64,000 bases of DNA from a virus (Duplodnaviria > Caudoviricetes). Shown piece by piece: positions 27,509-57,629 of this stretch. The stretch's first letter is position 1, and each line of letters begins with the position of its first letter. Location: the IMG/VR virus record IMGVR_UViG_3300005719_000009, positions 1 through 64,000 of that record, one strand, 5' to 3'. Made by a program: the position numbers and the translations under genes. Under the pieces are notes generated by a model, which saw only the letters and a program-made list of their open reading frames with translations, was not told the DNA's origin and did no database searches.

Positions 27509-27961
27509 TTAATTTTGACCGGGTAGTATTATTCCTTCCTTATCGGCTTGCGCCTTGAGTAGTTTTTCACTTTTACCGAAAATAAACCACCCTATATTTT
27601 GACACAAGTACCCGAATACTACTGCCACGACATTTAAAAAATTAATGAAATAAACCTTCCATTTAGCTGCCTCCATATTCTTTAGCTCTTCTTTGTTCAA
27701 CTCCATATTTATGAAATTAGGAAGAACAAACAACCCTATCAGCAAAATTACTACAGCGAAAGCAAAAGATGCCGTTTCTTTTGTAAAATGCATCTTTAAT
27801 GCATCTGAAAATGTTACCGTAGGTTTGTTCCTTTGTATCTCCCAGCTCTTTTTAAAGGCGTACGCTAATTGACCCAGAAACCAACCTATAACCAAGATTA
27901 CATAATTACTCATTTCATTTGAATTTATGTGATTATTTAATACTTCCTTATTAGCCTCCAC
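27509..27961 (-). CDS. Three-TM membrane protein (holin candidate)
   Basis: Three hydrophobic segments. Confidence 0.5.
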   Translation of the reverse strand: MEANKEVLNNHINSNEMSNYVILVIGWFLGQLAYAFKKSWEIQRNKPTVTFSDALKMHFTKETASFAFAVVILLIGLFVLPNFINMELNKEELKNMEAAKWKVYFINFLNVVAVVFGYLCQNIGWFIFGKSEKLLKAQADKEGIILPGQN

Positions 27962-30900
27962 GCAAGAGACTGATCAACCATGAAATCATATGTTTTCCCC
28001 CAATCAAGTGTTGTAAATGTCGACCCGGTAGCATTATCTGTTACAGCAGCGGACAAGCTATATTTGTTGCTGCCCGCTGAAAATCTCATAAGCAACGTCA
28101 CCGACTGACCATTAATTACAGCAGATGGCAATGTTAGTGTTCTCCCTGTTGTTAACACATCTGACACTTCTGCAATAATCGTATTAGACGCAACTGTGTA
28201 ATCAGCATCGGTATTGTTCGCATCTACATCATACGTAATGCCAGAAAACAGATTAACCCTTCCGCTGGATGTAACGGTAAAGGCCGAAACTGTGCTGCCT
28301 CCTGTCCCAACAGATAAAGAATTACCCCCGCCTGAAATAATTCTATTCCCCGCCAATGTTGCATCCCCGCTATACAATGTAGTTATAGATGAAGCGATGG
28401 AACTTTGTGCAACCTTTCTCACTATACTATCCGCGCCAAGCACTAATACAGAGTCTGTACTCAGCCCGTTCCCTCTCACCCTCATCAACTTAACCGTGTC
28501 CGATACTCTTAAGGCTGTTCCTATTATAGTTCCTTCTAAAGACGCATCCGTTTCCTGACCTATCCAAACCCTACTCGTACCGCCATTGCTTGAAGCTGCA
28601 CCTATAACAACATTACCGGCAATTGAACCCGTGTTTCTATTAAATCCGTATAAGTAAACCTTATTAGATGCATCCGACCTATATTGACCTATAAATCCCG
28701 TAGATGATGTAACGCCACCGGTTAATACGGACGCAGACGCAGATATATTATTATCGACAAAAAGTCCATTAGCCGTAGGGTTGGATGTTGAATTAATCAC
28801 AACATTGCTACCAAAAGCATTCAATCTAATTACACGCGTAGTTGAAAATGGAACACCACCTTGAACTTGTGCATCACCGTTATAAAATAAGTTTATTCCA
28901 GCGGTTGACATATTTGTTAAATCAATCCCCGTAGCTGTTACACTTGTTCCTGATTTAATATATCCGTCAGTTTGTATAAGACTCGATTTTATTCCGCCAT
29001 AAATGTTTATCGCCCCAAACTGTCTTTCGCTATTCGTAATTGGGGTATTCATTATAATAGAACTGTAAGGCATTTTAAGCAGCCTGCCAACACTATCTAC
29101 CCCTAATGGTATTGTTTGCCCGCTTCCGGTTTTCAAATTTCTTACCACAATACTATCGAATTCGGATTGCCTGTTTACTATTAGCTGCCGCCCATTATCG
29201 TACGCGCTATAATGAAAGCTATCTATGATAGCTTTCGTCCATATATCCTGCCCGGTAGAATCTGGGTGTAATGCATCTGGGATAATAGTAGTTCCATATT
29301 GTTGTGTTGCATTAAGCATATTAACGAAACTGGTGCCATAAACTGTATGTATAGAATCTATTCCATTTACGTATTGCTGAATGCGTGCTAACGGGGTACT
29401 GAAAATAGTAAAGTATGCGGGACTTACTAATAGTATATCCCGCATGTAAGAACCCCAGCCACGCGCAATACATGTATCTAATGTTCTTTTCCACCATACA
29501 ATAAAATTTACATATGTTAAGGTTGTTCCATTTTCATTAGTTATATCATTTGTACCAAACTCAAAAATTATACCTCTTAGCGAATCTGATTTAACCGGAA
29601 TATTCGACAGCATTGTTGTATTGTTCTGCACTGTAGTCCCTGATTGACATAAGTTTCGCTCCCGCATACCAAAAAACCTCGTAACCTTCCCACTAAATCT
29701 TTGAGTTAAGGGTACGGTTAAACCGGATGAACCTGCGCCAATGGAATTTCCAAAAAAATACAACGCCGTGCCCGTGTCGGCAGATTTCCTAAGATACATT
29801 GACCTATCGGTTGCATTGCCTATCCTAAGAACTGTATCGATATTGGCGTTATTGGCCCCAACTCCACTGCCACTTCCGACCCAGCTTGCCATTGGTTGAA
29901 TTAGCCCCGTTGTAGTGTTATACCCAATTGGTTTTATATTTGCAGTGTCTGTTTGTTGCGTTAAGGAAGGGAATCCATTAAATAATATTCTTCCTGTTGA
30001 TTTCTGAATTATTATTCCAGTATAAATGCCAGAAACATTTTCCCCGATTTGAATACCCGTCGTTGAGTCTATTAATATACGCCTTGAATTTAATGGCTGA
30101 GTAGATATCAACTGTATGTGATCTTGATTAGCATACACTGTATTTATGCTACTAAAATCCTCATATCTTCCAGACATAACCGCATTCGTGTTATCTATAG
30201 TAAATCTGGTAGTACTCGCCACCCCATTAGCTGCTATAATATCAAGTTCATTTGTTCCTACGGATATGTTTGTTGTTTTAACTAAAGGGCCACCTAATTG
30301 AATCGTATCAGCATCCTTAGATAGACCATTATTCGCATAAGAAGGGAATGACAATTGCGTTAAATCATATTGCGTTGCTATTTCTGTACTATCAACATCC
30401 GTAGTAATGGAGGTGGTAGTGGTAGTATGATTAATCCCAAATCCCGGATTCAATCTCTTAATTGTATCATTTATCAAAAGCGTATCTCCTGCCCCTGATG
30501 CATTTGCCAAAGGAGGCGTCAATGTCCCATTTGTTGCTGATGTGATTTGCCCTTTTGAATTAAAAGTAATATCACAATTCGTACAACTGCTACCAGTAAT
30601 TACATCTATCAACGAAATCAATCCACTCCCATTATCTGAAAAGTTGCTGGCACTGAATGTGGCGGCTCCTTTAGTTCCAGATGTATTTGCATTCGTTATG
30701 CCTATCGCACCAGTTGTTGAACTATACGTTATTGGAGAGGTGCCAGACAACAACCCTCGTACTTTTAAGTAAAAATTTGGTATCGCTCCCGTATCGAGTG
30801 TTGCCAGCGTTCCGTTGCCGCGAATATATTGCAGCGTAGTGCCAGCACCCGTAACCGAAAGAGTCCCGGCCCCCGTAACGGGAGAGTTGTTAACAGTAAA

Positions 30901-31401
30901 CGCAGAAGGCATTGACAACCCAACACTTGTCACAGTCCCAGAACCGCTCGTATTAAATACATGAATAAATGACTCTGAGCCATTTTTTTGCTTAAACAAA
31001 CTATCATTTCTGGAATAAACATTCTGAACCCATTTATTAGCAGTATCAATCTTTCTTAGGTACGGCAACAACATGGCTGTTGTATCAGAAATACTCAGCT
31101 TTAGGTTTATCCTATTACTTAATGAAGTCGTATCAATAGTAGTACCTATGCCATCTTGAATCCAGCGACTCCCAATCCAAATCCACTGAGTCGTGTCTAC
31201 TCCGGGACGCGGCCATGTAATCGTCATGCCGAATTTAGTTGGAGTCCAACTTGTATCCCTACGCGAAACAACCGTGCCGGAGTCAGGCACGGTATATGTA
31301 TTCTTAATCCATCCATTTATCGTTTGCGAAGGCACCCCGCTTTGAGATTGAGCGCTTAAATAAAACAAACAAAACAGTACTATATAAACTATATATCTCA
31401 T
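27937..31401 (-). CDS. Fibre/spike-like protein with Sec signal peptide and SGNH esterase domain
   Basis: MRYIVYIVLFCLFYLSA|Q; G/S/T-rich repeats (GSGTVTSVGLS); FFGNSI, GTND and DALHP SGNH blocks. Confidence 0.7.
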   Translation of the reverse strand: MRYIVYIVLFCLFYLSAQSQSGVPSQTINGWIKNTYTVPDSGTVVSRRDTSWTPTKFGMTITWPRPGVDTTQWIWIGSRWIQDGIGTTIDTTSLSNRINLKLSISDTTAMLLPYLRKIDTANKWVQNVYSRNDSLFKQKNGSESFIHVFNTSGSGTVTSVGLSMPSAFTVNNSPVTGAGTLSVTGAGTTLQYIRGNGTLATLDTGAIPNFYLKVRGLLSGTSPITYSSTTGAIGITNANTSGTKGAATFSASNFSDNGSGLISLIDVITGSSCTNCDITFNSKGQITSATNGTLTPPLANASGAGDTLLINDTIKRLNPGFGINHTTTTTSITTDVDSTEIATQYDLTQLSFPSYANNGLSKDADTIQLGGPLVKTTNISVGTNELDIIAANGVASTTRFTIDNTNAVMSGRYEDFSSINTVYANQDHIQLISTQPLNSRRILIDSTTGIQIGENVSGIYTGIIIQKSTGRILFNGFPSLTQQTDTANIKPIGYNTTTGLIQPMASWVGSGSGVGANNANIDTVLRIGNATDRSMYLRKSADTGTALYFFGNSIGAGSSGLTVPLTQRFSGKVTRFFGMRERNLCQSGTTVQNNTTMLSNIPVKSDSLRGIIFEFGTNDITNENGTTLTYVNFIVWWKRTLDTCIARGWGSYMRDILLVSPAYFTIFSTPLARIQQYVNGIDSIHTVYGTSFVNMLNATQQYGTTIIPDALHPDSTGQDIWTKAIIDSFHYSAYDNGRQLIVNRQSEFDSIVVRNLKTGSGQTIPLGVDSVGRLLKMPYSSIIMNTPITNSERQFGAINIYGGIKSSLIQTDGYIKSGTSVTATGIDLTNMSTAGINLFYNGDAQVQGGVPFSTTRVIRLNAFGSNVVINSTSNPTANGLFVDNNISASASVLTGGVTSSTGFIGQYRSDASNKVYLYGFNRNTGSIAGNVVIGAASSNGGTSRVWIGQETDASLEGTIIGTALRVSDTVKLMRVRGNGLSTDSVLVLGADSIVRKVAQSSIASSITTLYSGDATLAGNRIISGGGNSLSVGTGGSTVSAFTVTSSGRVNLFSGITYDVDANNTDADYTVASNTIIAEVSDVLTTGRTLTLPSAVINGQSVTLLMRFSAGSNKYSLSAAVTDNATGSTFTTLDWGKTYDFMVDQSLAWRLIRKY

Positions 31402-32543: not shown

Positions 32544-33062
32544 TTATTGATTTTTAACCTTAATCATTATTTTCTTTTGCCCATCCGTAGGGGCAACATT
32601 AACATCCATCGGCACTCTTCCTGCTAATTGTTGATTAATTTGACTAATAGAGGTTCTGAATCCGGGGCCAACGCCATACCCAAGTGCCTTTGTTTTTGAA
32701 AGAACATCTTTGATATATGGATCACTTGACCCAATGTCATAAAAGGCGTTTAATTTTTCCTCTACAGGAAGTTTCTGCACATCCGGTCTGGTGTTAAATA
32801 TATAAGCGTGGTTCATTAATTTTTGCGCAGCATCATTGCCAATCAAACGAGTTAAGCTACCGTATATCCCCGCCTTATCTTCAGGCTTTAATATATTCCC
32901 CTTGCCTACCAACTCCATCAACCTATCCCTAATGTCTAAATCCCTATCAATGGTTGTTCCTCCGGCAGCATGATATGTAGCTCCTTTTACGCCCCCTCCG
33001 CTATTTATTGGATCACCAGTTGCGGGATTAGCTATTCTCAATACTATTTTTTTGTTTTCCAT
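32544..33062 (-). CDS. Putative internal virion protein
   Basis: Follows the large ejection protein; KKI(V/M)(L/I)(R/K) at both termini. Confidence 0.5.
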   Translation of the reverse strand: MENKKIVLRIANPATGDPINSGGGVKGATYHAAGGTTIDRDLDIRDRLMELVGKGNILKPEDKAGIYGSLTRLIGNDAAQKLMNHAYIFNTRPDVQKLPVEEKLNAFYDIGSSDPYIKDVLSKTKALGYGVGPGFRTSISQINQQLAGRVPMDVNVAPTDGQKKIMIKVKNQ

Positions 33063-36000
33063 TATTGGTGTGGTTTATGTGGTTTACTTATTTTTGTTTT
33101 TGATACTTTTGTTGGCTTCGTACCGGAGTTTACACTTCCACCTCCACCACTTTCATACGTTGTTGTACCAACGCCCACAAAGCTCGGCAATCCAGTATAC
33201 AGTAGCGACATTGGGCCTTGCTCCTGCCACGCGTCTTTCACGTCGTTTATGATCATTGGTGTTAAGTGTTCCTTTACCTCGTCCGTCAGGTTAACATCTG
33301 CACCTACTGCTGTTCTTCCAGATAGAACATCTAATCCTATTGATGGAACTGGTGCTAATTTGCCACGGAAAAAACTAAACAACTTATCGGCTTTTGTATG
33401 TTGACCAAACCCACTGCCAAGCGGAACGATATTCCCATTGCTTTTCTTTTCCACCCCAGACATTAATTGTGAAGCAACCCTTATGTATTGCTGAAACCCG
33501 CCCCATATGTCCCATCTGGTATCTCCTGCATGTATTTTCCCGAAATCAGGGCTATTTGGGTTAGCCTCAACTTTAACGCCCGGAATCATTGCAAACAAAG
33601 TTAACGTTGTCGTGCCAGCCATAATCAAATTAGCCATATCATTCAACGCCATTAATCTCACCTCTTTAGGCAATGACGCATACCATACTGGATTTAGTAG
33701 ATTTATTCTTGATGCTATCAATCTGGGTGAGAAGAACATACTATTTAAAACTTTTGCCGCAGGCTCTAAATCTCCCAACTCGCCTCTACCAGTAGCTGCA
33801 TTTATAAATGCCCCCAGACCCTCGTATACATCCGGCCTCGTTTGTGGAGTTATACCTCGATCCGCCAAATCCTTAGCATACATAGTAAATACATCAACTC
33901 TTAACTTATTCAAATACGCCACATAAGCACGTTCACTTTTAGAAATAAGACCAGCCCCCGGAATTAATTTCTTGCCTCCCACTTTAAGGGTTTCTCCTAT
34001 TATTGGTATTTTCTCAGCAAGATTCGTCATAAATGCTTCCTCTTTCGCTGACAAATGTAAATTGTTTGGATCGGCTATGTATAATCCGAATTTAGATAAA
34101 ACATTTTTATAGTAATCACTTTCCTTTAAATCATAAAGCCACTTATCAAACCTATCTGGATTAATTGCCTGTCTAATGCTTTCCGCAAACGCCTTAGCGG
34201 CCATAAGCGGATGCGAAGTAGTAAGCACCAGCCCCTGCCTTAAAGGTGCTGATAAATCCACAGAAGCCATAAGCGTACGCGGGATGCCCAAAAATTCCCT
34301 AAATCGATCCCATCCCTTTTGCCCTCTTGTTCTGTTATTATACGCATTCTGCGCTATCTGCTTTTGCCATTCAATTTTCTTTTTAACATAAGCCTCTTTT
34401 AGCGTTTGTGCTTCCTTATCAAGCTCAATAGTGTTTTTTTCTTCTGGTTCAAAATCACCGGCATCTATTTTTCGCTGTATTTCCTCTGTCATTTTTTTAT
34501 ACCTTGACTTCAATGCTATCAATTTCTCTGACTCTGCTTTCTCTGGCCTGCCTTGCAATTCTTTTATTTGTTTTCGCAAATCCTCTATTTCCGCACTACG
34601 AAGCAATCTCGCTCGATTGCTTTTGGGTTGCGGCCCAGCTTTCAAAGCTTCCAGCCTATTTATATACTTTGCCTGAAGGTGTATTTCATAAGCCTTTTCT
34701 TGGAGGTCGTTTTTTGTTTGCTTTTTTGAATATTCCCCTGCTATTATATCGTGAATGTTTTTTTCACTTATCCCTTCAACTACGTCCTTCAGTTGCTCAT
34801 GTATGTTATTTATTATTTCAGGCAATTTCTCAATCCCCTCTTCAATTAAACTCTTAACCAATTTAGCCACATGAGGCGCTATTGCCGCCAACTGCGCAGT
34901 GCCGGGCAGGCTTATCATTGCTCCCTTTTCTCCCTTCGCTACTTTAAGCAAATCATCCCTCATTTTTGCTATAATATCTTTCCGTTCATTTACATAGTCT
35001 TCGTGAGTTCTTGATTTTGACGTTTGCTTCTTCTCAGATACCGCCTTCTTTAAAACACCTTCCGCCTTTAGTTTTGCATTTTCTGCGGCAAGCTTTTCAA
35101 CTCTTGCTCGATACGCGTCCCTGCTTGCCTGCATATCATCATATCTTGCCTTCACTCCTGCCGCCTGTTCTTCCGTCAATGGAACACCTAAATTTGCGTC
35201 TTTTGCCTGCTGGAAAAACGACGAAAGCGTTTCATCATTAAGCATAAACATTCTTCTGGCTCTAAATGCGGCCCCTTCTTCCGATCCGGCCTTGTCGCTG
35301 GCCCGGCTAAGTCGTTCAATTGCATCAAGCGTAGAATTAAATTCAGGAGTATTAACTTCTAAATTTTTCAACTTCACGTTTAACGCTCCCACCATTTTTG
35401 CAAACGCTACCTGCTCTGTATCTGTCATTGATTTGTCTCTGCCAGATAATAGCCTATCGGCTTTACCTTCAAAATCATACCCGTCTCTTATTAGGCTGTC
35501 GGCTTCTCTTTCAAGCGTTATATCGTCTTTTGTTGCGCGTGGTATCCTGTCAGTAAGCCCTAACTCACTGTATATTTTTTCAGTATCAGCATGAGCCAAT
35601 CTACCAACATCCCCATCTTCTGGATTAAATGGCAAATCAAACATATTTGGAGGTATCCCATCGCTCATTTTTGTTTCACTCTGACCAGCACTTTCTCCTT
35701 CGGTTGCACCTTGCGCTCCGGCAACTTCACCTGAATCGGGTATTCCTTCGCCCATCTGCTGGCTATCTCCGGGTGTTTCGCCCATAGAAACTTCCTCTGG
35801 GCCTCCGATTTGAACGGCATTTTCTTCTGGTTTTGTTTTAAATTCTTCAAAATCTATATCTTCGGCATTGATTTTTTTGCCCTTATTCTTATTTAATAAC
35901 ACATTAGCCCATTTATCAAAATCTCCATTTTTTATATCAGCAATATCAACATGCGTATATTTGGATATTTCACTTTCACTCATGACCCCTTGCTTATACT

Positions 36001-38146
36001 GCCTATATAAAATTCTTTTTTCTTCAGCCGACAATACTTTAGAAGCCTTTAGCATGCCCAAAACATCCACTTCTTGTTGATTAATTTGCTCTGTGTAGGA
36101 TTGCGGATATAATTCTTTTGCCTTATTCACTATCTCTTCGCCAAATGTCTCAATAGTTTGATTTAATGAATTTGGATCAGCAGCCTGTTCTGCTATATCT
36201 TTAAAATACCCCTCCAATTCCTTTTCGGTAGCATTCCTTAATGTATCAGTAACGAACCCCTCAATATTTCCTTTCTTAAATTCCTTATCAACGACTTTTT
36301 GCAATTCGCCTCGATCAGCCCCTTTCGATATATTTACAATTTCCTCATCCAGTTTTTTTATATCCTCTTTAATATCCGGATGATATGCTTTGTCTACTCT
36401 TTCAAGTTCTTCTTGAAGCAAATTCCTTTCTTTTATTTTTGCCTGAACCTTCAGGCGATCTAATTCAGGAATGTCTTCCGGAATGGAAGCATTTAATTGT
36501 TTTTGATCTCTTATTGCCTTTTGTGCTGCTTGTAACTCCTCAGTACTTATATACCCTGTCTCTTGGAGATTATTAAACTCCTGATCTATCACGTGCTCCG
36601 GCAATTTAGCCACACTGTGCACTATTTCATTGTATGTTGATTTTTTCAACAACTTAGGCGCTTTCGCAAGCATAGCAATACCTGCCGTCATAGTCACACC
36701 GCCTACCAGTTGAGGCAAAGTTCCTTCCATTGTATCAACAGGTATCCCAGCTTTTTGCGACATTAAATTCTTAACAACTTGCCCGCTGGCCCCTATTGCG
36801 CCAACTCCTAACCCTTCCATTATTTTCTTTGCGCCCTCTTCCCCAATTTGCTTCAACCCGCTACGAACCGAATTTTGTAGCAATGGAGTTGCTATATTAG
36901 TTGGCTTCAATGCCGCCTCGCCGCCTACAAAACCCATTGCGGCCCCGGTTGCAGCATCTACTGTTGCCTGTTTTTCGGCTAACTCCTTCGCTTGCTGATA
37001 AGCGGTGTAATCGGCCATTTCAGGATGCGTCCTTTTTATTTCAGCATAATTCATTTGCAACGCAGAAGCATAACCTAACTTATACATTTCATGCGCAGAT
37101 ATCCCAGACGCAGCAGCAGCCCCGGCGATAGGAGTGCCTAAGTAATTAGCTATCGCTCCCCCAACAATTGGCTTTATGGGTTGACCGCCTATCATAGCCC
37201 CGGCCTCTCCTGAAGTTCCAACAGGCACATCAATCGGGGTGTCCGGGTCTTGCTCTTTTATTTTACTATTTAGTTCTGATATTATTGCCGATTCGTTATC
37301 CGTTTTAGTGTACAATTCGTAATCCTTAAACAATTCATTCTTCTGCCTAAACCCTAAAGCCAAACTCCCCAAAAAACCATGTGGGGTATACAATACCCCT
37401 CTCAATGGGTCATAGTCAACATCACCTTTTATTATCTTGTCTACATTTTTACTTATTTTATTTTCCTTATCAGGATTATCTTGTCGATCTAACCTGTATA
37501 TGTCAGCTTTTAGTCTATTTGCTTCTGATGGATTTGTTTTGCTTAAATCTTTAACCCGTTGATTGATGGCAGTTCTTACCATGCCGGGGTTTTCTGCCAT
37601 TTCTGCTTTAAACTGCTGTATCTCATCATTGGTCACAGTAGTTTGCGGCCTTAGCTTACTTTCAATTTCAGCAACCTGCGGGCTTACCGGCATACCCTCT
37701 TTTGGATTACCCCCCAACAAAATGCTTTTCGATCTCCCCTCAATATCTTTTTTGTTATTATATATAAGATTGCCAATATTCCTATCAATATCTTGTATAT
37801 GCGCATTAACTCTATCAGAGGCCTGTGCCGTCTTTATTGTATGATCATCGATAGGCACCACATTCGCCTCTACCATCGGCTTGTATTTCTGACTTGGCAC
37901 ATTCAACCAATCTGTCATTGGCTTGAATTGGACTTGCGTTTGCTCTTGCTGTTTTGGCTTAGGCTGCTCCTGAACAGCTTCTTCTGTTACAACAGGATCA
38001 TATGTTGCCTTTGGGTTGAAAGTTGGTTTTTTACCTTTAGGCGTAGGCGTATCCTGAACGGCTTCGTAAGAAGCATTCGGATCAAACGATGGCTTTTCGC
38101 CAGTAGAAGGAAATGTTCTGCTACTCATACTGCCCAGTTTTTTCAT
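33062..38146 (-). CDS. Large DNA ejection / internal virion protein (1694 aa)
   Basis: Helical; Gly/Ala-rich hydrophobic stretches; LPD38-like C-terminus (RGKLAP...DVLSGRT..G); position after the tail genes. Confidence 0.6.
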   Translation of the reverse strand: MKKLGSMSSRTFPSTGEKPSFDPNASYEAVQDTPTPKGKKPTFNPKATYDPVVTEEAVQEQPKPKQQEQTQVQFKPMTDWLNVPSQKYKPMVEANVVPIDDHTIKTAQASDRVNAHIQDIDRNIGNLIYNNKKDIEGRSKSILLGGNPKEGMPVSPQVAEIESKLRPQTTVTNDEIQQFKAEMAENPGMVRTAINQRVKDLSKTNPSEANRLKADIYRLDRQDNPDKENKISKNVDKIIKGDVDYDPLRGVLYTPHGFLGSLALGFRQKNELFKDYELYTKTDNESAIISELNSKIKEQDPDTPIDVPVGTSGEAGAMIGGQPIKPIVGGAIANYLGTPIAGAAAASGISAHEMYKLGYASALQMNYAEIKRTHPEMADYTAYQQAKELAEKQATVDAATGAAMGFVGGEAALKPTNIATPLLQNSVRSGLKQIGEEGAKKIMEGLGVGAIGASGQVVKNLMSQKAGIPVDTMEGTLPQLVGGVTMTAGIAMLAKAPKLLKKSTYNEIVHSVAKLPEHVIDQEFNNLQETGYISTEELQAAQKAIRDQKQLNASIPEDIPELDRLKVQAKIKERNLLQEELERVDKAYHPDIKEDIKKLDEEIVNISKGADRGELQKVVDKEFKKGNIEGFVTDTLRNATEKELEGYFKDIAEQAADPNSLNQTIETFGEEIVNKAKELYPQSYTEQINQQEVDVLGMLKASKVLSAEEKRILYRQYKQGVMSESEISKYTHVDIADIKNGDFDKWANVLLNKNKGKKINAEDIDFEEFKTKPEENAVQIGGPEEVSMGETPGDSQQMGEGIPDSGEVAGAQGATEGESAGQSETKMSDGIPPNMFDLPFNPEDGDVGRLAHADTEKIYSELGLTDRIPRATKDDITLEREADSLIRDGYDFEGKADRLLSGRDKSMTDTEQVAFAKMVGALNVKLKNLEVNTPEFNSTLDAIERLSRASDKAGSEEGAAFRARRMFMLNDETLSSFFQQAKDANLGVPLTEEQAAGVKARYDDMQASRDAYRARVEKLAAENAKLKAEGVLKKAVSEKKQTSKSRTHEDYVNERKDIIAKMRDDLLKVAKGEKGAMISLPGTAQLAAIAPHVAKLVKSLIEEGIEKLPEIINNIHEQLKDVVEGISEKNIHDIIAGEYSKKQTKNDLQEKAYEIHLQAKYINRLEALKAGPQPKSNRARLLRSAEIEDLRKQIKELQGRPEKAESEKLIALKSRYKKMTEEIQRKIDAGDFEPEEKNTIELDKEAQTLKEAYVKKKIEWQKQIAQNAYNNRTRGQKGWDRFREFLGIPRTLMASVDLSAPLRQGLVLTTSHPLMAAKAFAESIRQAINPDRFDKWLYDLKESDYYKNVLSKFGLYIADPNNLHLSAKEEAFMTNLAEKIPIIGETLKVGGKKLIPGAGLISKSERAYVAYLNKLRVDVFTMYAKDLADRGITPQTRPDVYEGLGAFINAATGRGELGDLEPAAKVLNSMFFSPRLIASRINLLNPVWYASLPKEVRLMALNDMANLIMAGTTTLTLFAMIPGVKVEANPNSPDFGKIHAGDTRWDIWGGFQQYIRVASQLMSGVEKKSNGNIVPLGSGFGQHTKADKLFSFFRGKLAPVPSIGLDVLSGRTAVGADVNLTDEVKEHLTPMIINDVKDAWQEQGPMSLLYTGLPSFVGVGTTTYESGGGGSVNSGTKPTKVSKTKISKPHKPHQ
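35665..35820 (-). CDS. Overprinted 51-aa gene (MPFKSEAQRKFLWAKHPEIASRWAKEYP...) nested in the +1 frame of the ejection protein
   Basis: Resembles a widespread stand-alone phage small-protein family; A at -3, -6, -12 and -13 fits the Bacteroidota TIR. Confidence 0.65.
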   Translation of the reverse strand: MPFKSEAQRKFLWAKHPEIASRWAKEYPIQVKLPERKVQPKEKVLVRVKQK

Positions 38147-55785: not shown

Positions 55786-56080
55786 ATACGATACCGATTA
55801 TTTCTTCGCCTTGTAAGACTAAATATGTTTGACCTTCGTACTCTATTTCAAAACCGCACCCTTTATGAAATAGCGCTTTCTTGCCTTTCCCATTCTTTAT
55901 ATTATGGTCTTTCACCAAAGACCCGATACTGAATATCGTTCCCTTGTTAGGCTTAACCTTCCCTTCAGATGGGAGCAATAAACCAGATGTTTCTGATTCT
56001 GTCTTGTCCCTAAGTACAAAAACGCAATTATTTGTTGCTTTTGGTTGATTGTTCATATTATACAGATTACATTGTGTCAC
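55769..56080 (-). CDS. groES: Co-chaperonin GroES
   Basis: V.V.R...E.ETSGLLLP...G.I.SIG...YEG..YLVL..EEIIGIV. Confidence 0.8.
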   Translation of the reverse strand: MTQCNLYNMNNQPKATNNCVFVLRDKTESETSGLLLPSEGKVKPNKGTIFSIGSLVKDHNIKNGKGKKALFHKGCGFEIEYEGQTYLVLQGEEIIGIVYETSK

Positions 56081-57629
56081 AAATAAGGCATTCGGAGGTA
56101 AGGATCATCCCAGCAGATGAGGCTGCATTCTGTAAAGCGCACCTAAGCACCTTGGTTGGGTCGATTACACCAGCCTCAACCAAATCCTCAATAACATCTG
56201 TCTTTGCATTATATCCGAAACTTCCGGCCAACCCTTTAACTTGTTTTAATATTTGCTCTGCATCTGTTCCGGCATTAAGGCAAATTTGCTTAAGAACCAT
56301 TTCCATTGCAGAATCAACAACTTCATTCCCAGATTTAACCCTTAACAATGTTGTTCCGCCGCCTGCCACATACCCTTCAGAAATGGCTGCTTTGGTGGCC
56401 CTTACTGAATCATCAAACCGATCTAATCTTTCTTTCATTTCGGTTTCCGTAGCAGCGCCAACCTGAATAACAGCAACGCCCCCAGTTAATTTTGCTATTC
56501 GCTTTTCAATTGGAAATTTTTCGTCTTCGTTTTTAGCTTGTGCTAAATTCATACGCAATTCATCCAGCAAATTTTGAAGCAAATCCTTATCTGTATCGCC
56601 GCCAATTATAACAGTTTCTTCTTTGTTAACGATAACCTTTTTCGCGAAACCTAAATTAGCTGGCTCTATTTCTTTTATATTGACACCACGCAAATCGCTA
56701 ACATAGGAGCCCCCTGTTAATAATGCAATATCTTCCATTTCCAAGCGTCTCGCCTCGCCAAAAGCAGGAGCCTTAACAACACAAACCCGTACCCGACCCT
56801 GAATAGTATTCATGGCCAAAAAAGCAAGACCCTCATCAACAGCATCTTCGCATATTATCAACAACGGATGCCCTTGTTTCATTGATATTTCAAGCGCTCT
56901 TTGAATTTGAGTATGATGATTTATCCTGTTTTGGTAAATCAAAATCAATGCTTCCTCAAACTCGCATATTTGCTTTTCCTTGTTGTTTACAAATAAAGGA
57001 GAAACCCAACTCTGCTCCCACTTATACCCATCAGAGATTTTTATTTCAGTGTCAACACTTTTACTTGGCTCCAAATCAATTATACCCTCATCCCCGATCT
57101 TTTCAAACGCCTTCGCAATCCACTCCCCGATTTCCGGGTCATTATTGGCTGAAATGGTGGCTATTTGTCGAATACGATTTATATCCCCCTTTATTGGCGT
57201 GGAAACATCTTTTAGCCTATCAACAACAAGCCCAACAGCTTTGTCAATTTCTTTTTTCAATTCCATTGGATTAGCTCCTTGATTTATCAAGGCGATACCC
57301 TTTTCAGCAATCGCCTCGGCTAAAACAACGGTAGTCGTCGTCCCATCACCGGCCTGATCAACTGATTTCTGGGATGCTTCCTTTATCATTAAAACTCCCG
57401 CTTGCTCAAATGGATCATCATGCACTTCAAATGCCTTGGCAGTAGTATACCCATCTTTGGTAACGTGTATTGGTAAGTTATGTACCCCATAATCAACAAC
57501 CATGCTTTGTGATATTAATACATTTCTGCCCATTGGTCCTAATGTAACCTTCACAGCAGCCGCGATCTTCTTAATGCCAGATAGCAATTTTGCACGAGCA
57601 TCAGGCCCGTACAACGTCTTTTTGTTCAT
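56067..57629 (-). CDS. groEL: Chaperonin GroEL (no GGM tail)
   Basis: TLGP.GRNV; TKDG; AGDGTTT; KAPAFG; KLTGGVAVI.VGA.TE; GVIDPTKV.R.ALQNAAS. Confidence 0.97.
   Translation of the reverse strand: MNKKTLYGPDARAKLLSGIKKIAAAVKVTLGPMGRNVLISQSMVVDYGVHNLPIHVTKDGYTTAKAFEVHDDPFEQAGVLMIKEASQKSVDQAGDGTTTTVVLAEAIAEKGIALINQGANPMELKKEIDKAVGLVVDRLKDVSTPIKGDINRIRQIATISANNDPEIGEWIAKAFEKIGDEGIIDLEPSKSVDTEIKISDGYKWEQSWVSPLFVNNKEKQICEFEEALILIYQNRINHHTQIQRALEISMKQGHPLLIICEDAVDEGLAFLAMNTIQGRVRVCVVKAPAFGEARRLEMEDIALLTGGSYVSDLRGVNIKEIEPANLGFAKKVIVNKEETVIIGGDTDKDLLQNLLDELRMNLAQAKNEDEKFPIEKRIAKLTGGVAVIQVGAATETEMKERLDRFDDSVRATKAAISEGYVAGGGTTLLRVKSGNEVVDSAMEMVLKQICLNAGTDAEQILKQVKGLAGSFGYNAKTDVIEDLVEAGVIDPTKVLRCALQNAASSAGMILTSECLICDTM

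Follow-up and report, generated by a model that had tools for sequence, protein, structure and literature searches.

We found that a 51-residue protein of a conserved phage family is encoded out of frame inside a gene for a 1694-residue virion protein, and that the same hidden arrangement recurs across dozens of uncultured phages. The stretch of DNA analysed here (the window) comprises 64,000 nucleotides, positions 1 to 64,000 of the IMG/VR record IMGVR_UViG_3300005719_000009, a genome of 76,124 bp. The small gene lies on the minus strand in the +1 frame of the larger open reading frame (ORF). Comparative evidence indicates that it is a real overlapping gene under selection, a conclusion in which we have high confidence, although its translation is inferred from sequence comparison without expression, ribosome-profiling or proteomic data. 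The features of the locus are collected in Table 1.

Table 1. Features of the nested gene and its host ORF in the window
Coordinates	Strand	Feature	Supporting observations
35665..35820	minus	Nested gene, 51 codons plus TGA (ATG at 35820-35818, TGA at 35667-35665); basic protein with a predicted two-helix hairpin (residues 6-15 and 17-26) and a Lys-rich disordered tail	Family profile E = 1e-24; net charge +9, pI 10.4; AlphaFold2 model with mean pLDDT 74, and 80-91 over residues 1-20
35821..35845	minus	A-rich, unstructured region just upstream of the nested ATG; presumed Shine-Dalgarno-independent initiation context	70% A in the 20 nt upstream, no Shine-Dalgarno-like core; fold no stronger than shuffles (z = +1.1)
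33062..38146	minus	Host ORF of 1694 aa; large virion-module protein, putative cargo or ejection protein by position only	Downstream of a gene carrying a crAss muzzle C-terminal domain (PF25729, E = 1.7e-13); continuous homologues of 1271-1901 aa in L003-L012
35665..35823	minus	Dual-coded stretch read in the host frame (residues 776-828); acidic Gly/Glu/Pro/Ser-rich disordered linker between the variable N-terminal part and the conserved C-terminal part	Net charge -9, pI 4.1; no host-frame stop in any nested copy; synonymous-site bias favouring Gly/Asp/Ser/Glu in the host frame
35666..35668	minus	In-frame host ATG (Met827) overlapping the nested TGA in the sequence ATGA; possible restart site for a C-terminal isoform, specific to this window	Not conserved: L003 has TAGTG with an in-frame GTG; L012, L006, L009 and the scaffold-type copies have no such start
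33137..34363	minus	Conserved C-terminal core of the host protein (residues 1262-1670)	Also occurs in 627-810-aa proteins in other phages

First, we asked whether the nested ORF exceeds chance expectation. Its length alone is not remarkable, since other +1-frame ORFs of 45-56 codons occur within the same gene. In contrast, its homology is. A search against 5.8 billion proteins returned 49 stand-alone homologues of 41-91 aa, with E values down to 2e-12 and an invariant N-terminus starting at Met-Pro-Phe-Lys-Ser. A profile search then revealed a large phage family, with the N-terminus MPFKSEAQRKFLWAKHPEIA..W, of 3584 clusters at 50% identity (E <= 1e-3), 658 of them at E <= 1e-10. Members are stand-alone genes of 40-90 aa or the N-terminal module of longer proteins; about 65 of the top 150 are long proteins with the module at or near the N-terminus, and most of the long proteins sampled share DUF6321. 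The window peptide shares the nearly invariant positions M1, P2, F3, K4, S5, Q8, R9, H16, P17, I19, A20 and W23, and is the only clear copy in the 76-kb genome.

The family had no Pfam or PDB match and no fold match. The peptide gave nothing in Pfam and only a weak match to phrog_1375 (E = 0.013), a PDB sequence search gave only chance-level hits, and a Foldseek search with the predicted model found nothing with E <= 0.001. None of 73 family members matched a relevant Pfam model, including DUF3008 (PF11450) at E <= 1, for which the only hint was a feature-space neighbour at 0.82 in which 15% of members carry the family. Full-text literature searches for the motif and for embedded genes in such phages returned only a chance string match.

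Next, we examined whether the nested arrangement is kept in relatives of the host gene. In the loci L003, L012 and L006 and, weakly, in L009, the homologue lies in the +1 frame of a continuous 1562-1901-aa homologue of the host gene, at the aligned linker position and with a conserved ATG. The host proteins of these relatives are 36-49% identical. The stand-alone copy in another locus, L001, has 8 stops across its stop-to-stop ORF in the frame corresponding to the host's. However, the gene is dispensable. Five relatives of the host gene lack it or carry a decayed copy, and no copy was found elsewhere on their contigs, one of which is 95% complete, although several of these records are fragments. 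In one of them, L004, a different +1 ORF at the same site has no homologues and is read as a decayed copy.

We then extended the analysis to the family as a whole. The gene was nested in 64 of 123 family loci examined, including 47 of the best 80 IMG/VR loci and 14 of 36 MAG-contig loci, and the host frame was always the nested frame minus one. With the shared stretch masked, 19 sampled host genes fell into five BLASTP-unrelated groups. The genomic context is that of head, packaging or virion modules. In L028 the order is portal, small gene, scaffold and major head protein, in L022 and L026 the gene lies just upstream of the large terminase gene, and in about 45 loci it is nested in the gene between the portal and the capsid-like protein. 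The giant protein next to a stand-alone copy in L024 is not similar to the host protein. Gene callers forbid long same-strand overlaps, so this gene is invisible in standard phage annotation, and indeed no identical protein appeared among the called proteins searched. As more than half of the family's loci in the sets examined are nested, this represents a systematic blind spot in viral metagenomics for one of the more widespread small phage proteins.

To determine which of the two frames is constrained, we compared substitutions by codon position. Differences at the three nested codon positions were 7/5/18 for the window against L012 and 6/5/19 for the window against L001. Entropy by codon position was 0.45/0.44/0.78, and amino-acid entropy was 0.67 in the nested frame and 1.19 in the host frame. 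Over 44 unique nested copies, pN/pS was 0.32 in the nested frame and 1.28 in the host frame. These results indicate that the nested frame is the constrained one. However, pN/pS estimates are biased in overlapping frames and many nested copies are phylogenetically related, so that the statistics overstate independence. The host frame is also under selection. No host-frame stop occurred in 50 of 50 nested copies, whereas stand-alone copies averaged 3.0 and N-fused copies 3.6. Furthermore, Phe3 is TTC in 43 of 44 nested copies against 12 of 27 stand-alone copies, Pro17 is CCG in 43 of 44 against 6 of 27, and Ile19 is ATA in 38 of 44 against 8 of 27 (Fisher p values from 1e-11 to 2e-6, uncorrected for relatedness). 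Synonymous sites are thus biased in a way that keeps the host frame stop-free and acidic, and the stretch is therefore dual-coding.

The sequence around the start is consistent with independent initiation. The ATG is conserved in every copy, and a nested-frame stop lies only 4-14 codons upstream. Across 50 nested copies the mean A fraction upstream of the ATG was 0.60 and an SD-like core occurred in 4 of 50, against 0.33 and 14 of 28 in stand-alone copies. We infer that ribosomes translating the virion protein read the stretch as a linker, and that ribosomes starting at the internal ATG read it one base later to make the small basic protein.

The earlier note, which had proposed that a widespread stand-alone phage small-protein family is represented by a constrained frame hidden in this gene and missed by standard annotation, is supported in each part that could be tested, with three corrections. 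It called the gene overprinted, which suggests that the small gene was born inside the large one. The evidence points the other way: the small gene family is broad and probably older, and the host linker is probably the reading laid over it, tolerated because the -1 frame of this Lys/Arg/Glu-rich gene translates into Glu/Gly/Asp/Ser/Pro-rich sequence. The note also called the host an ejection protein, which is only a positional inference, as the host protein has no Pfam, PHROG or PDB match and only one distant GenBank phage hit. Finally, the phenomenon is much wider than this gene. As for its origin, the upstream reading frame likely ran across a leader-type gene into the downstream coding region, and L084, a natural one-indel frame-swap variant, shows how easily the two layouts interconvert. 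This suggests one way that giant virion proteins grow, by fusing across small genes.

We considered three other explanations, all of which appear unlikely. Ribosomes starting at the nested ATG might move into the host frame, by a -1 slip or by termination and restart at the ATGA overlap, and so make the C-terminal half of the virion protein with, or directly after, the small module. The constant frame relation in all 64 nested cases is in the direction that a -1 frameshift would need, in-frame fusions of the module to large proteins are common, and L084 encodes exactly such a fusion with the scaffold-position protein. In addition, the window has A AAA TGA with the overlapping in-frame ATG, L006 has A AAA AAG TAA, L003 has G GGG TAG followed by an in-frame GTG, and a subclade of seven carries an in-phase G GGT TTT heptamer. 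However, in-phase canonical slippery heptamers were no more frequent in nested copies (12 of 46) than in stand-alone copies (9 of 27), and their position is not conserved. Most nested ORFs end in AAG TAA or AAG TAG, produced by a host Val codon, with no slippery run and no host-frame start nearby. The frame preference has a simpler explanation, in that the -1 reading is acidic and linker-like, whereas the other frame is Arg/Cys-rich and contains stops. We therefore rejected frameshift fusion and coupled restart as general mechanisms.

It is similarly doubtful that the nested ORF is an untranslated relic of a gene swallowed by a gene fusion, its conservation being a by-product of constraint on the host frame or on the nucleotide sequence. 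The dispensability of the gene, the absence of expression evidence, and the decayed copies in relatives such as L004 and L007, which still have the ATG and an open frame, would fit this view. Yet substitutions concentrate at nested third positions, which are host first positions, and the nested protein is 71-82% identical between phages whose host proteins are 36-49% identical. Moreover, start codon and open frame are kept in 64 of 64 nested copies in AT-rich genomes, while the L004 copy shows what loss of constraint looks like. Least likely is that the host ORF is really an N-terminal gene, the small gene and a C-terminal gene starting at Met827, with the host frame across the small gene open only incidentally. 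The ATGA overlap does look like ordinary translational coupling, and the C-terminal core exists as separate proteins in other phages. Nevertheless, the host frame is stop-free in all 64 nested copies, synonymous choices avoid stops and basic residues in that frame, the coupling signal is absent in L012, L006 and L009, and relatives without the small gene still have one continuous ORF through the aligned linker.

The function of the small protein can only be guessed at. Our best, but tentative, guess is that it is a free copy of a portable head-morphogenesis module used in head assembly or capsid loading, which would bind the portal, the capsid interior or the DNA and act as a small assembly factor or internal protein. 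It is also possible, though somewhat less likely than not, that the stretch is a portable dual-coding cassette, one frame encoding a conserved basic helical-hairpin module used in head assembly or cargo loading and the -1 frame being pre-adapted as an acidic flexible linker. Such a cassette would have been captured by, or moved between, at least five unrelated virion-gene families, namely scaffold-position proteins and several giant internal proteins. Hundreds of phage genomes would then carry an unannotated gene, and large virion proteins would grow by reading across it. In an 81-nt tree all nested copies clustered together, which could reflect shared ancestry or convergence forced by stop avoidance.

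Drawing on what is established for phage lambda, the layout resembles that of the Rz/Rz1 spanin genes, in which Rz1 is wholly embedded in the +1 frame of Rz on the same strand and both are translated from the same late mRNA by independent initiation, as we infer here. However, Rz and Rz1 are two subunits of one complex and their embedded layout is restricted to spanins, whereas the present gene belongs to a family that is mostly stand-alone or N-terminally fused, and no interaction with the host product is shown. As in the overprinted genes of small viruses (phiX174 A/B/K/E and RNA-virus accessory genes), one DNA stretch is read in two frames, one well conserved and the other compositionally biased and disordered. 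In classical overprinting the short, novel, disordered protein is the newcomer inside an old gene; here the short protein is probably the old, conserved one and the disordered reading belongs to the large host protein, in a genome that is not under extreme size pressure. Within its own unnamed family, of which gene 48 of Streptomyces phage FlowerPower is a stand-alone member, the window gene shares the conserved N-terminus and the basic tail and differs in being nested out of frame. By functional analogy only, a short N-terminal module, which may be shared by many otherwise unrelated proteins of the head module and is predicted here to be a basic helical hairpin, recalls the capsid-targeting sequence of phage T4 internal proteins and the helix-loop-helix coat-binding domain of P22 scaffolding protein, but there is no sequence or fold match to either, and here the module would also be made on its own, without cargo.

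We first examined the ORF itself, for which the earlier note had given no strand. It lies on the minus strand, runs from an ATG to a TGA and encodes 51 aa in the +1 frame of a 1694-aa ORF. The two readings are opposites: the nested peptide has a net charge of +9 and a pI of 10.4, whereas the overlapping host stretch has a net charge of -9 and a pI of 4.1 and is rich in Gly, Glu, Pro and Ser. The third frame is Arg/Cys-rich and contains stops. The segment is also a local G+C spike, with 52.6% G+C compared with 38.8% for the genome and 41.3% for the host gene, and such spikes inside large AT-rich phage genes might serve as a search cue for other hidden overlaps. ORF length alone is unremarkable, since other +1 ORFs of 45-56 codons occur in the same gene, and the case rests on homology and comparison.

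Positions of the nested gene, its host gene and related features
Feature	Sequence	Position	Strand
Nested 51-aa ORF (dual-coded segment), ATG at 35820	window	35665-35820	-
Host ORF, 1694 aa	window	33062-38146	-
Host stretch overlapped by the nested ORF	host protein	residues 776-828	
Conserved C-terminal core of the host protein	host protein	residues 1262-1670	
1154-aa protein with GDSL-like lipase/acylhydrolase domain	window	27937-31401	-
GroEL-type chaperonin	window	56067-57629	-
Frame-swap variant of the scaffold-type locus	L084	5860-7044	
+1 ORF read as a decayed copy	L004	5423-5575	
+1 ORF read as a decayed copy	L007	2522-2650	
In-phase G GGT TTT heptamer	L044, L066, L080, L081, L082, L088, L100	nested ORF codon 36	

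Next, we asked whether the peptide belongs to a protein family. A search of 5.8 billion predicted proteins found 49 small proteins of 41-91 aa, with E down to 2e-12, whose N-terminus is almost invariant and starts exactly at Met-Pro-Phe-Lys-Ser. A profile search of 1.84 billion cluster representatives found 3584 clusters at E <= 1e-3 and 658 at E <= 1e-10. About 65 of the best 150 are long proteins of 164-1051 aa, of which nearly all carry the module at residues 1-50 and a few carry it within the first 85 residues, while none has it in the middle or at the C-terminus. Nine of ten long forms sampled carry DUF6321 (PF19846), at variable positions, which links two domains of unknown function. Three long proteins (P0071, P0078 and P0083 from the profile search) share the small module plus about 330 N-terminal residues and then diverge completely, a polymorphic-tail architecture in which one tail has two HExxH-like motifs and a weak Peptidase_M91 match. 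The family has no Pfam model, no solved relative and only a weak PHROG match. AlphaFold2 predicts two helices, at residues 6-15 and 17-26, with pLDDT of 80-91 over residues 1-20, followed by a disordered Lys-rich tail, and Foldseek found no meaningful match to this model. Together, these results indicated that the peptide belongs to a real and large family.

We then examined where the free gene sits. In the locus L001 it lies two genes downstream of a protein of more than 1472 aa whose C-terminal part is 29% identical to host residues 941-1668. In the loci L022 and L026 it is just upstream of the large terminase gene, and in L022 it follows a small-terminase-like gene. In L024 it comes directly after a 2612-aa protein, and in L028 it lies between the portal and the scaffolding protein. 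In Streptomyces phage FlowerPower it is an annotated 72-aa hypothetical protein next to the holin. Most of these positions are in head, packaging or virion modules.

To determine whether the nesting is conserved, we compared relatives of the host gene. The window is from a 76,124-bp virus record with crAss-like features: it has a muzzle-protein C-terminal domain in the 1299-aa gene, a large terminase of phrog_6681 and a capsid-like protein of phrog_13704. The record also encodes, at the end of the virion module, a protein with a GDSL-like lipase/acylhydrolase domain (PF13472, E = 8e-8) that is probably a tail-associated esterase, as well as a full-length GroEL-type chaperonin (phrog_5725, E = 7e-131). 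IMG/VR holds 19 relatives of the host protein at 36-49% identity. In L003, L012, L006 and, more divergently, L009, a family member starts at a conserved ATG in the +1 frame of a continuous 1562-1901-aa ORF, at the aligned linker just before the conserved C-terminal region. By contrast, the free copy in L001 has 8 stops across its stop-to-stop ORF in the frame corresponding to the host's. At the aligned site, the relatives L004 and L007 keep an ATG and a +1 ORF of 42-50 codons, but with a different sequence. The L004 peptide has no database homologue, and we read both as decayed copies. On a tree of the C-terminal core the carriers are scattered, and L006, with an intact copy, is sister to L004 at 100/99 support, which fits an old gain followed by repeated loss. 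Relatives without the gene have no copy elsewhere on their contigs, so the gene is accessory. Furthermore, the conserved C-terminal core occurs in proteins of only 627-810 aa in other phages (L013-L017 and L021). The large protein is therefore modular, with variable N-terminal additions.

The findings above were extended by examining loci of the family at large. Of the best 80 IMG/VR loci encoding the family (more than 541 exist), 47 have the small ORF inside a longer same-strand ORF. Of 36 loci on MAG contigs, 14 do; these bins are assigned to Flavobacteriaceae, Cytophagales, Planctomycetaceae, Saccharimonadales and others, although binning of phage contigs is unreliable. With three of the host-gene relatives counted as well (the window itself excluded), 64 of 123 family loci are nested, and in all 64 cases the host frame is the nested frame minus one. 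When the cassette was masked, 19 sampled host genes fell into five BLASTP-unrelated groups: the window's clade; a family of 1.3-3.1-kaa giant proteins, homologous on both sides of the cassette; two further giants, L031 and L130; and a protein of about 400 aa encoded between the portal and the capsid-like protein, which is the scaffold position. Between the window's host and these others the only significant similarity is the cassette itself, apart from one weak match to the locus L030 at E = 0.006.

To determine which frame is selected, we compared substitutions in the two readings. Differences between copies pile up at nested third positions, with counts by nested codon position of 7/5/18 for the window against L012 and 6/5/19 for the window against L001. 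Over 44 unique nested copies, nucleotide entropy by codon position is 0.45/0.44/0.78, and amino-acid entropy is 0.67 in the nested frame and 1.19 in the host frame. Pooled Nei-Gojobori pN/pS is 0.32 in the nested frame and 1.28 in the host frame. The nested protein is 71-82% identical between phages whose host proteins are 36-49% identical. In addition to the constraint on the nested frame, the host frame is also selected. It has no stop in any nested copy, whereas free copies average 3.0 stops and N-fused copies 3.6. Nested synonymous sites are strongly biased: Phe3 is TTC in 43 of 44 copies, because TTT followed by AAR would create a stop, Pro17 is CCG in 43 of 44, Ile19 is ATA in 38 of 44 and Arg9 is AGG in 35 of 44. 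Each of the last three choices gives Gly, Ser or Glu in the host frame rather than Arg, Cys, Lys or a stop, and in free copies these codons are mixed. The statistical tests of these biases ignore relatedness, so they are indicative only. From these sequence comparisons, in the absence of direct evidence of translation, we conclude that both frames are probably read.

The locus L084 is informative about how the layout may arise. It has the same terminase, portal, X, capsid layout as the scaffold-type loci, but there the module is in frame with the body of X (347 aa) and is preceded by an AGGAGG-like motif, and a 75-codon upstream ORF overlaps it in the -1 frame and stops just after it. One indel separates this natural frame-swap variant from the nested layout. 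The likely route is that an upstream reading frame runs across a leader-type gene and an indel joins it to the downstream body, leaving the small gene nested. The breadth of the family argues that the small gene came first, although this direction is an inference. In an 81-nt tree all nested copies, together with L084, form one group apart from free and fused copies. This is compatible with a single origin and later spread, but it could also be convergence forced by stop avoidance.

As for expression, independent initiation is the economical reading. Every nested copy keeps the ATG at the position where free homologues start, and a nested-frame stop lies only 4-14 codons upstream. In the window, the 20 nt before the ATG are 70% A, lack a Shine-Dalgarno-like core and are unstructured. 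Across nested copies the upstream region is likewise A-rich, with a mean A of 0.60 and an SD-like core in 4 of 50, against 0.33 and 14 of 28 for free copies, a context that appears to fit translation in Bacteroidota. We also considered whether the small ORF might instead be joined to the host frame by recoding. Frameshift fusion was tested and is not supported. A subclade of seven scaffold-type nested copies carries an in-phase G GGT TTT heptamer near the end of the small ORF, which could be a local -1 frameshift site, but it is not general. The nested stop overlaps host Met827 in an ATGA sequence, but this overlap is not conserved. The constant frame relation does not require recoding either, as the -1 reading of this Lys/Arg/Glu-rich gene is acidic and flexible, which suits a linker, and this explains the frame preference.

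Several features together, namely the position in head and virion modules, the use as the N-terminal module of many large proteins, the fusion to a scaffold-position protein and the predicted basic helical hairpin with a Lys-rich tail, make a head-assembly or capsid-loading module, or a small DNA-binding internal protein, our best guess for its function, though a doubtful one.

Collectively, the finding is real, and the reading in the earlier note, that a member of a widespread stand-alone phage small-protein family is encoded in the +1 frame of the large gene and would be missed by standard annotation, is essentially right. Overlapping genes in phages are already known. What is new here is that an old, widespread small gene, whose translation is so far inferred, is embedded out of frame in the linkers of several unrelated virion genes, is under dual constraint, and is missed by annotation.
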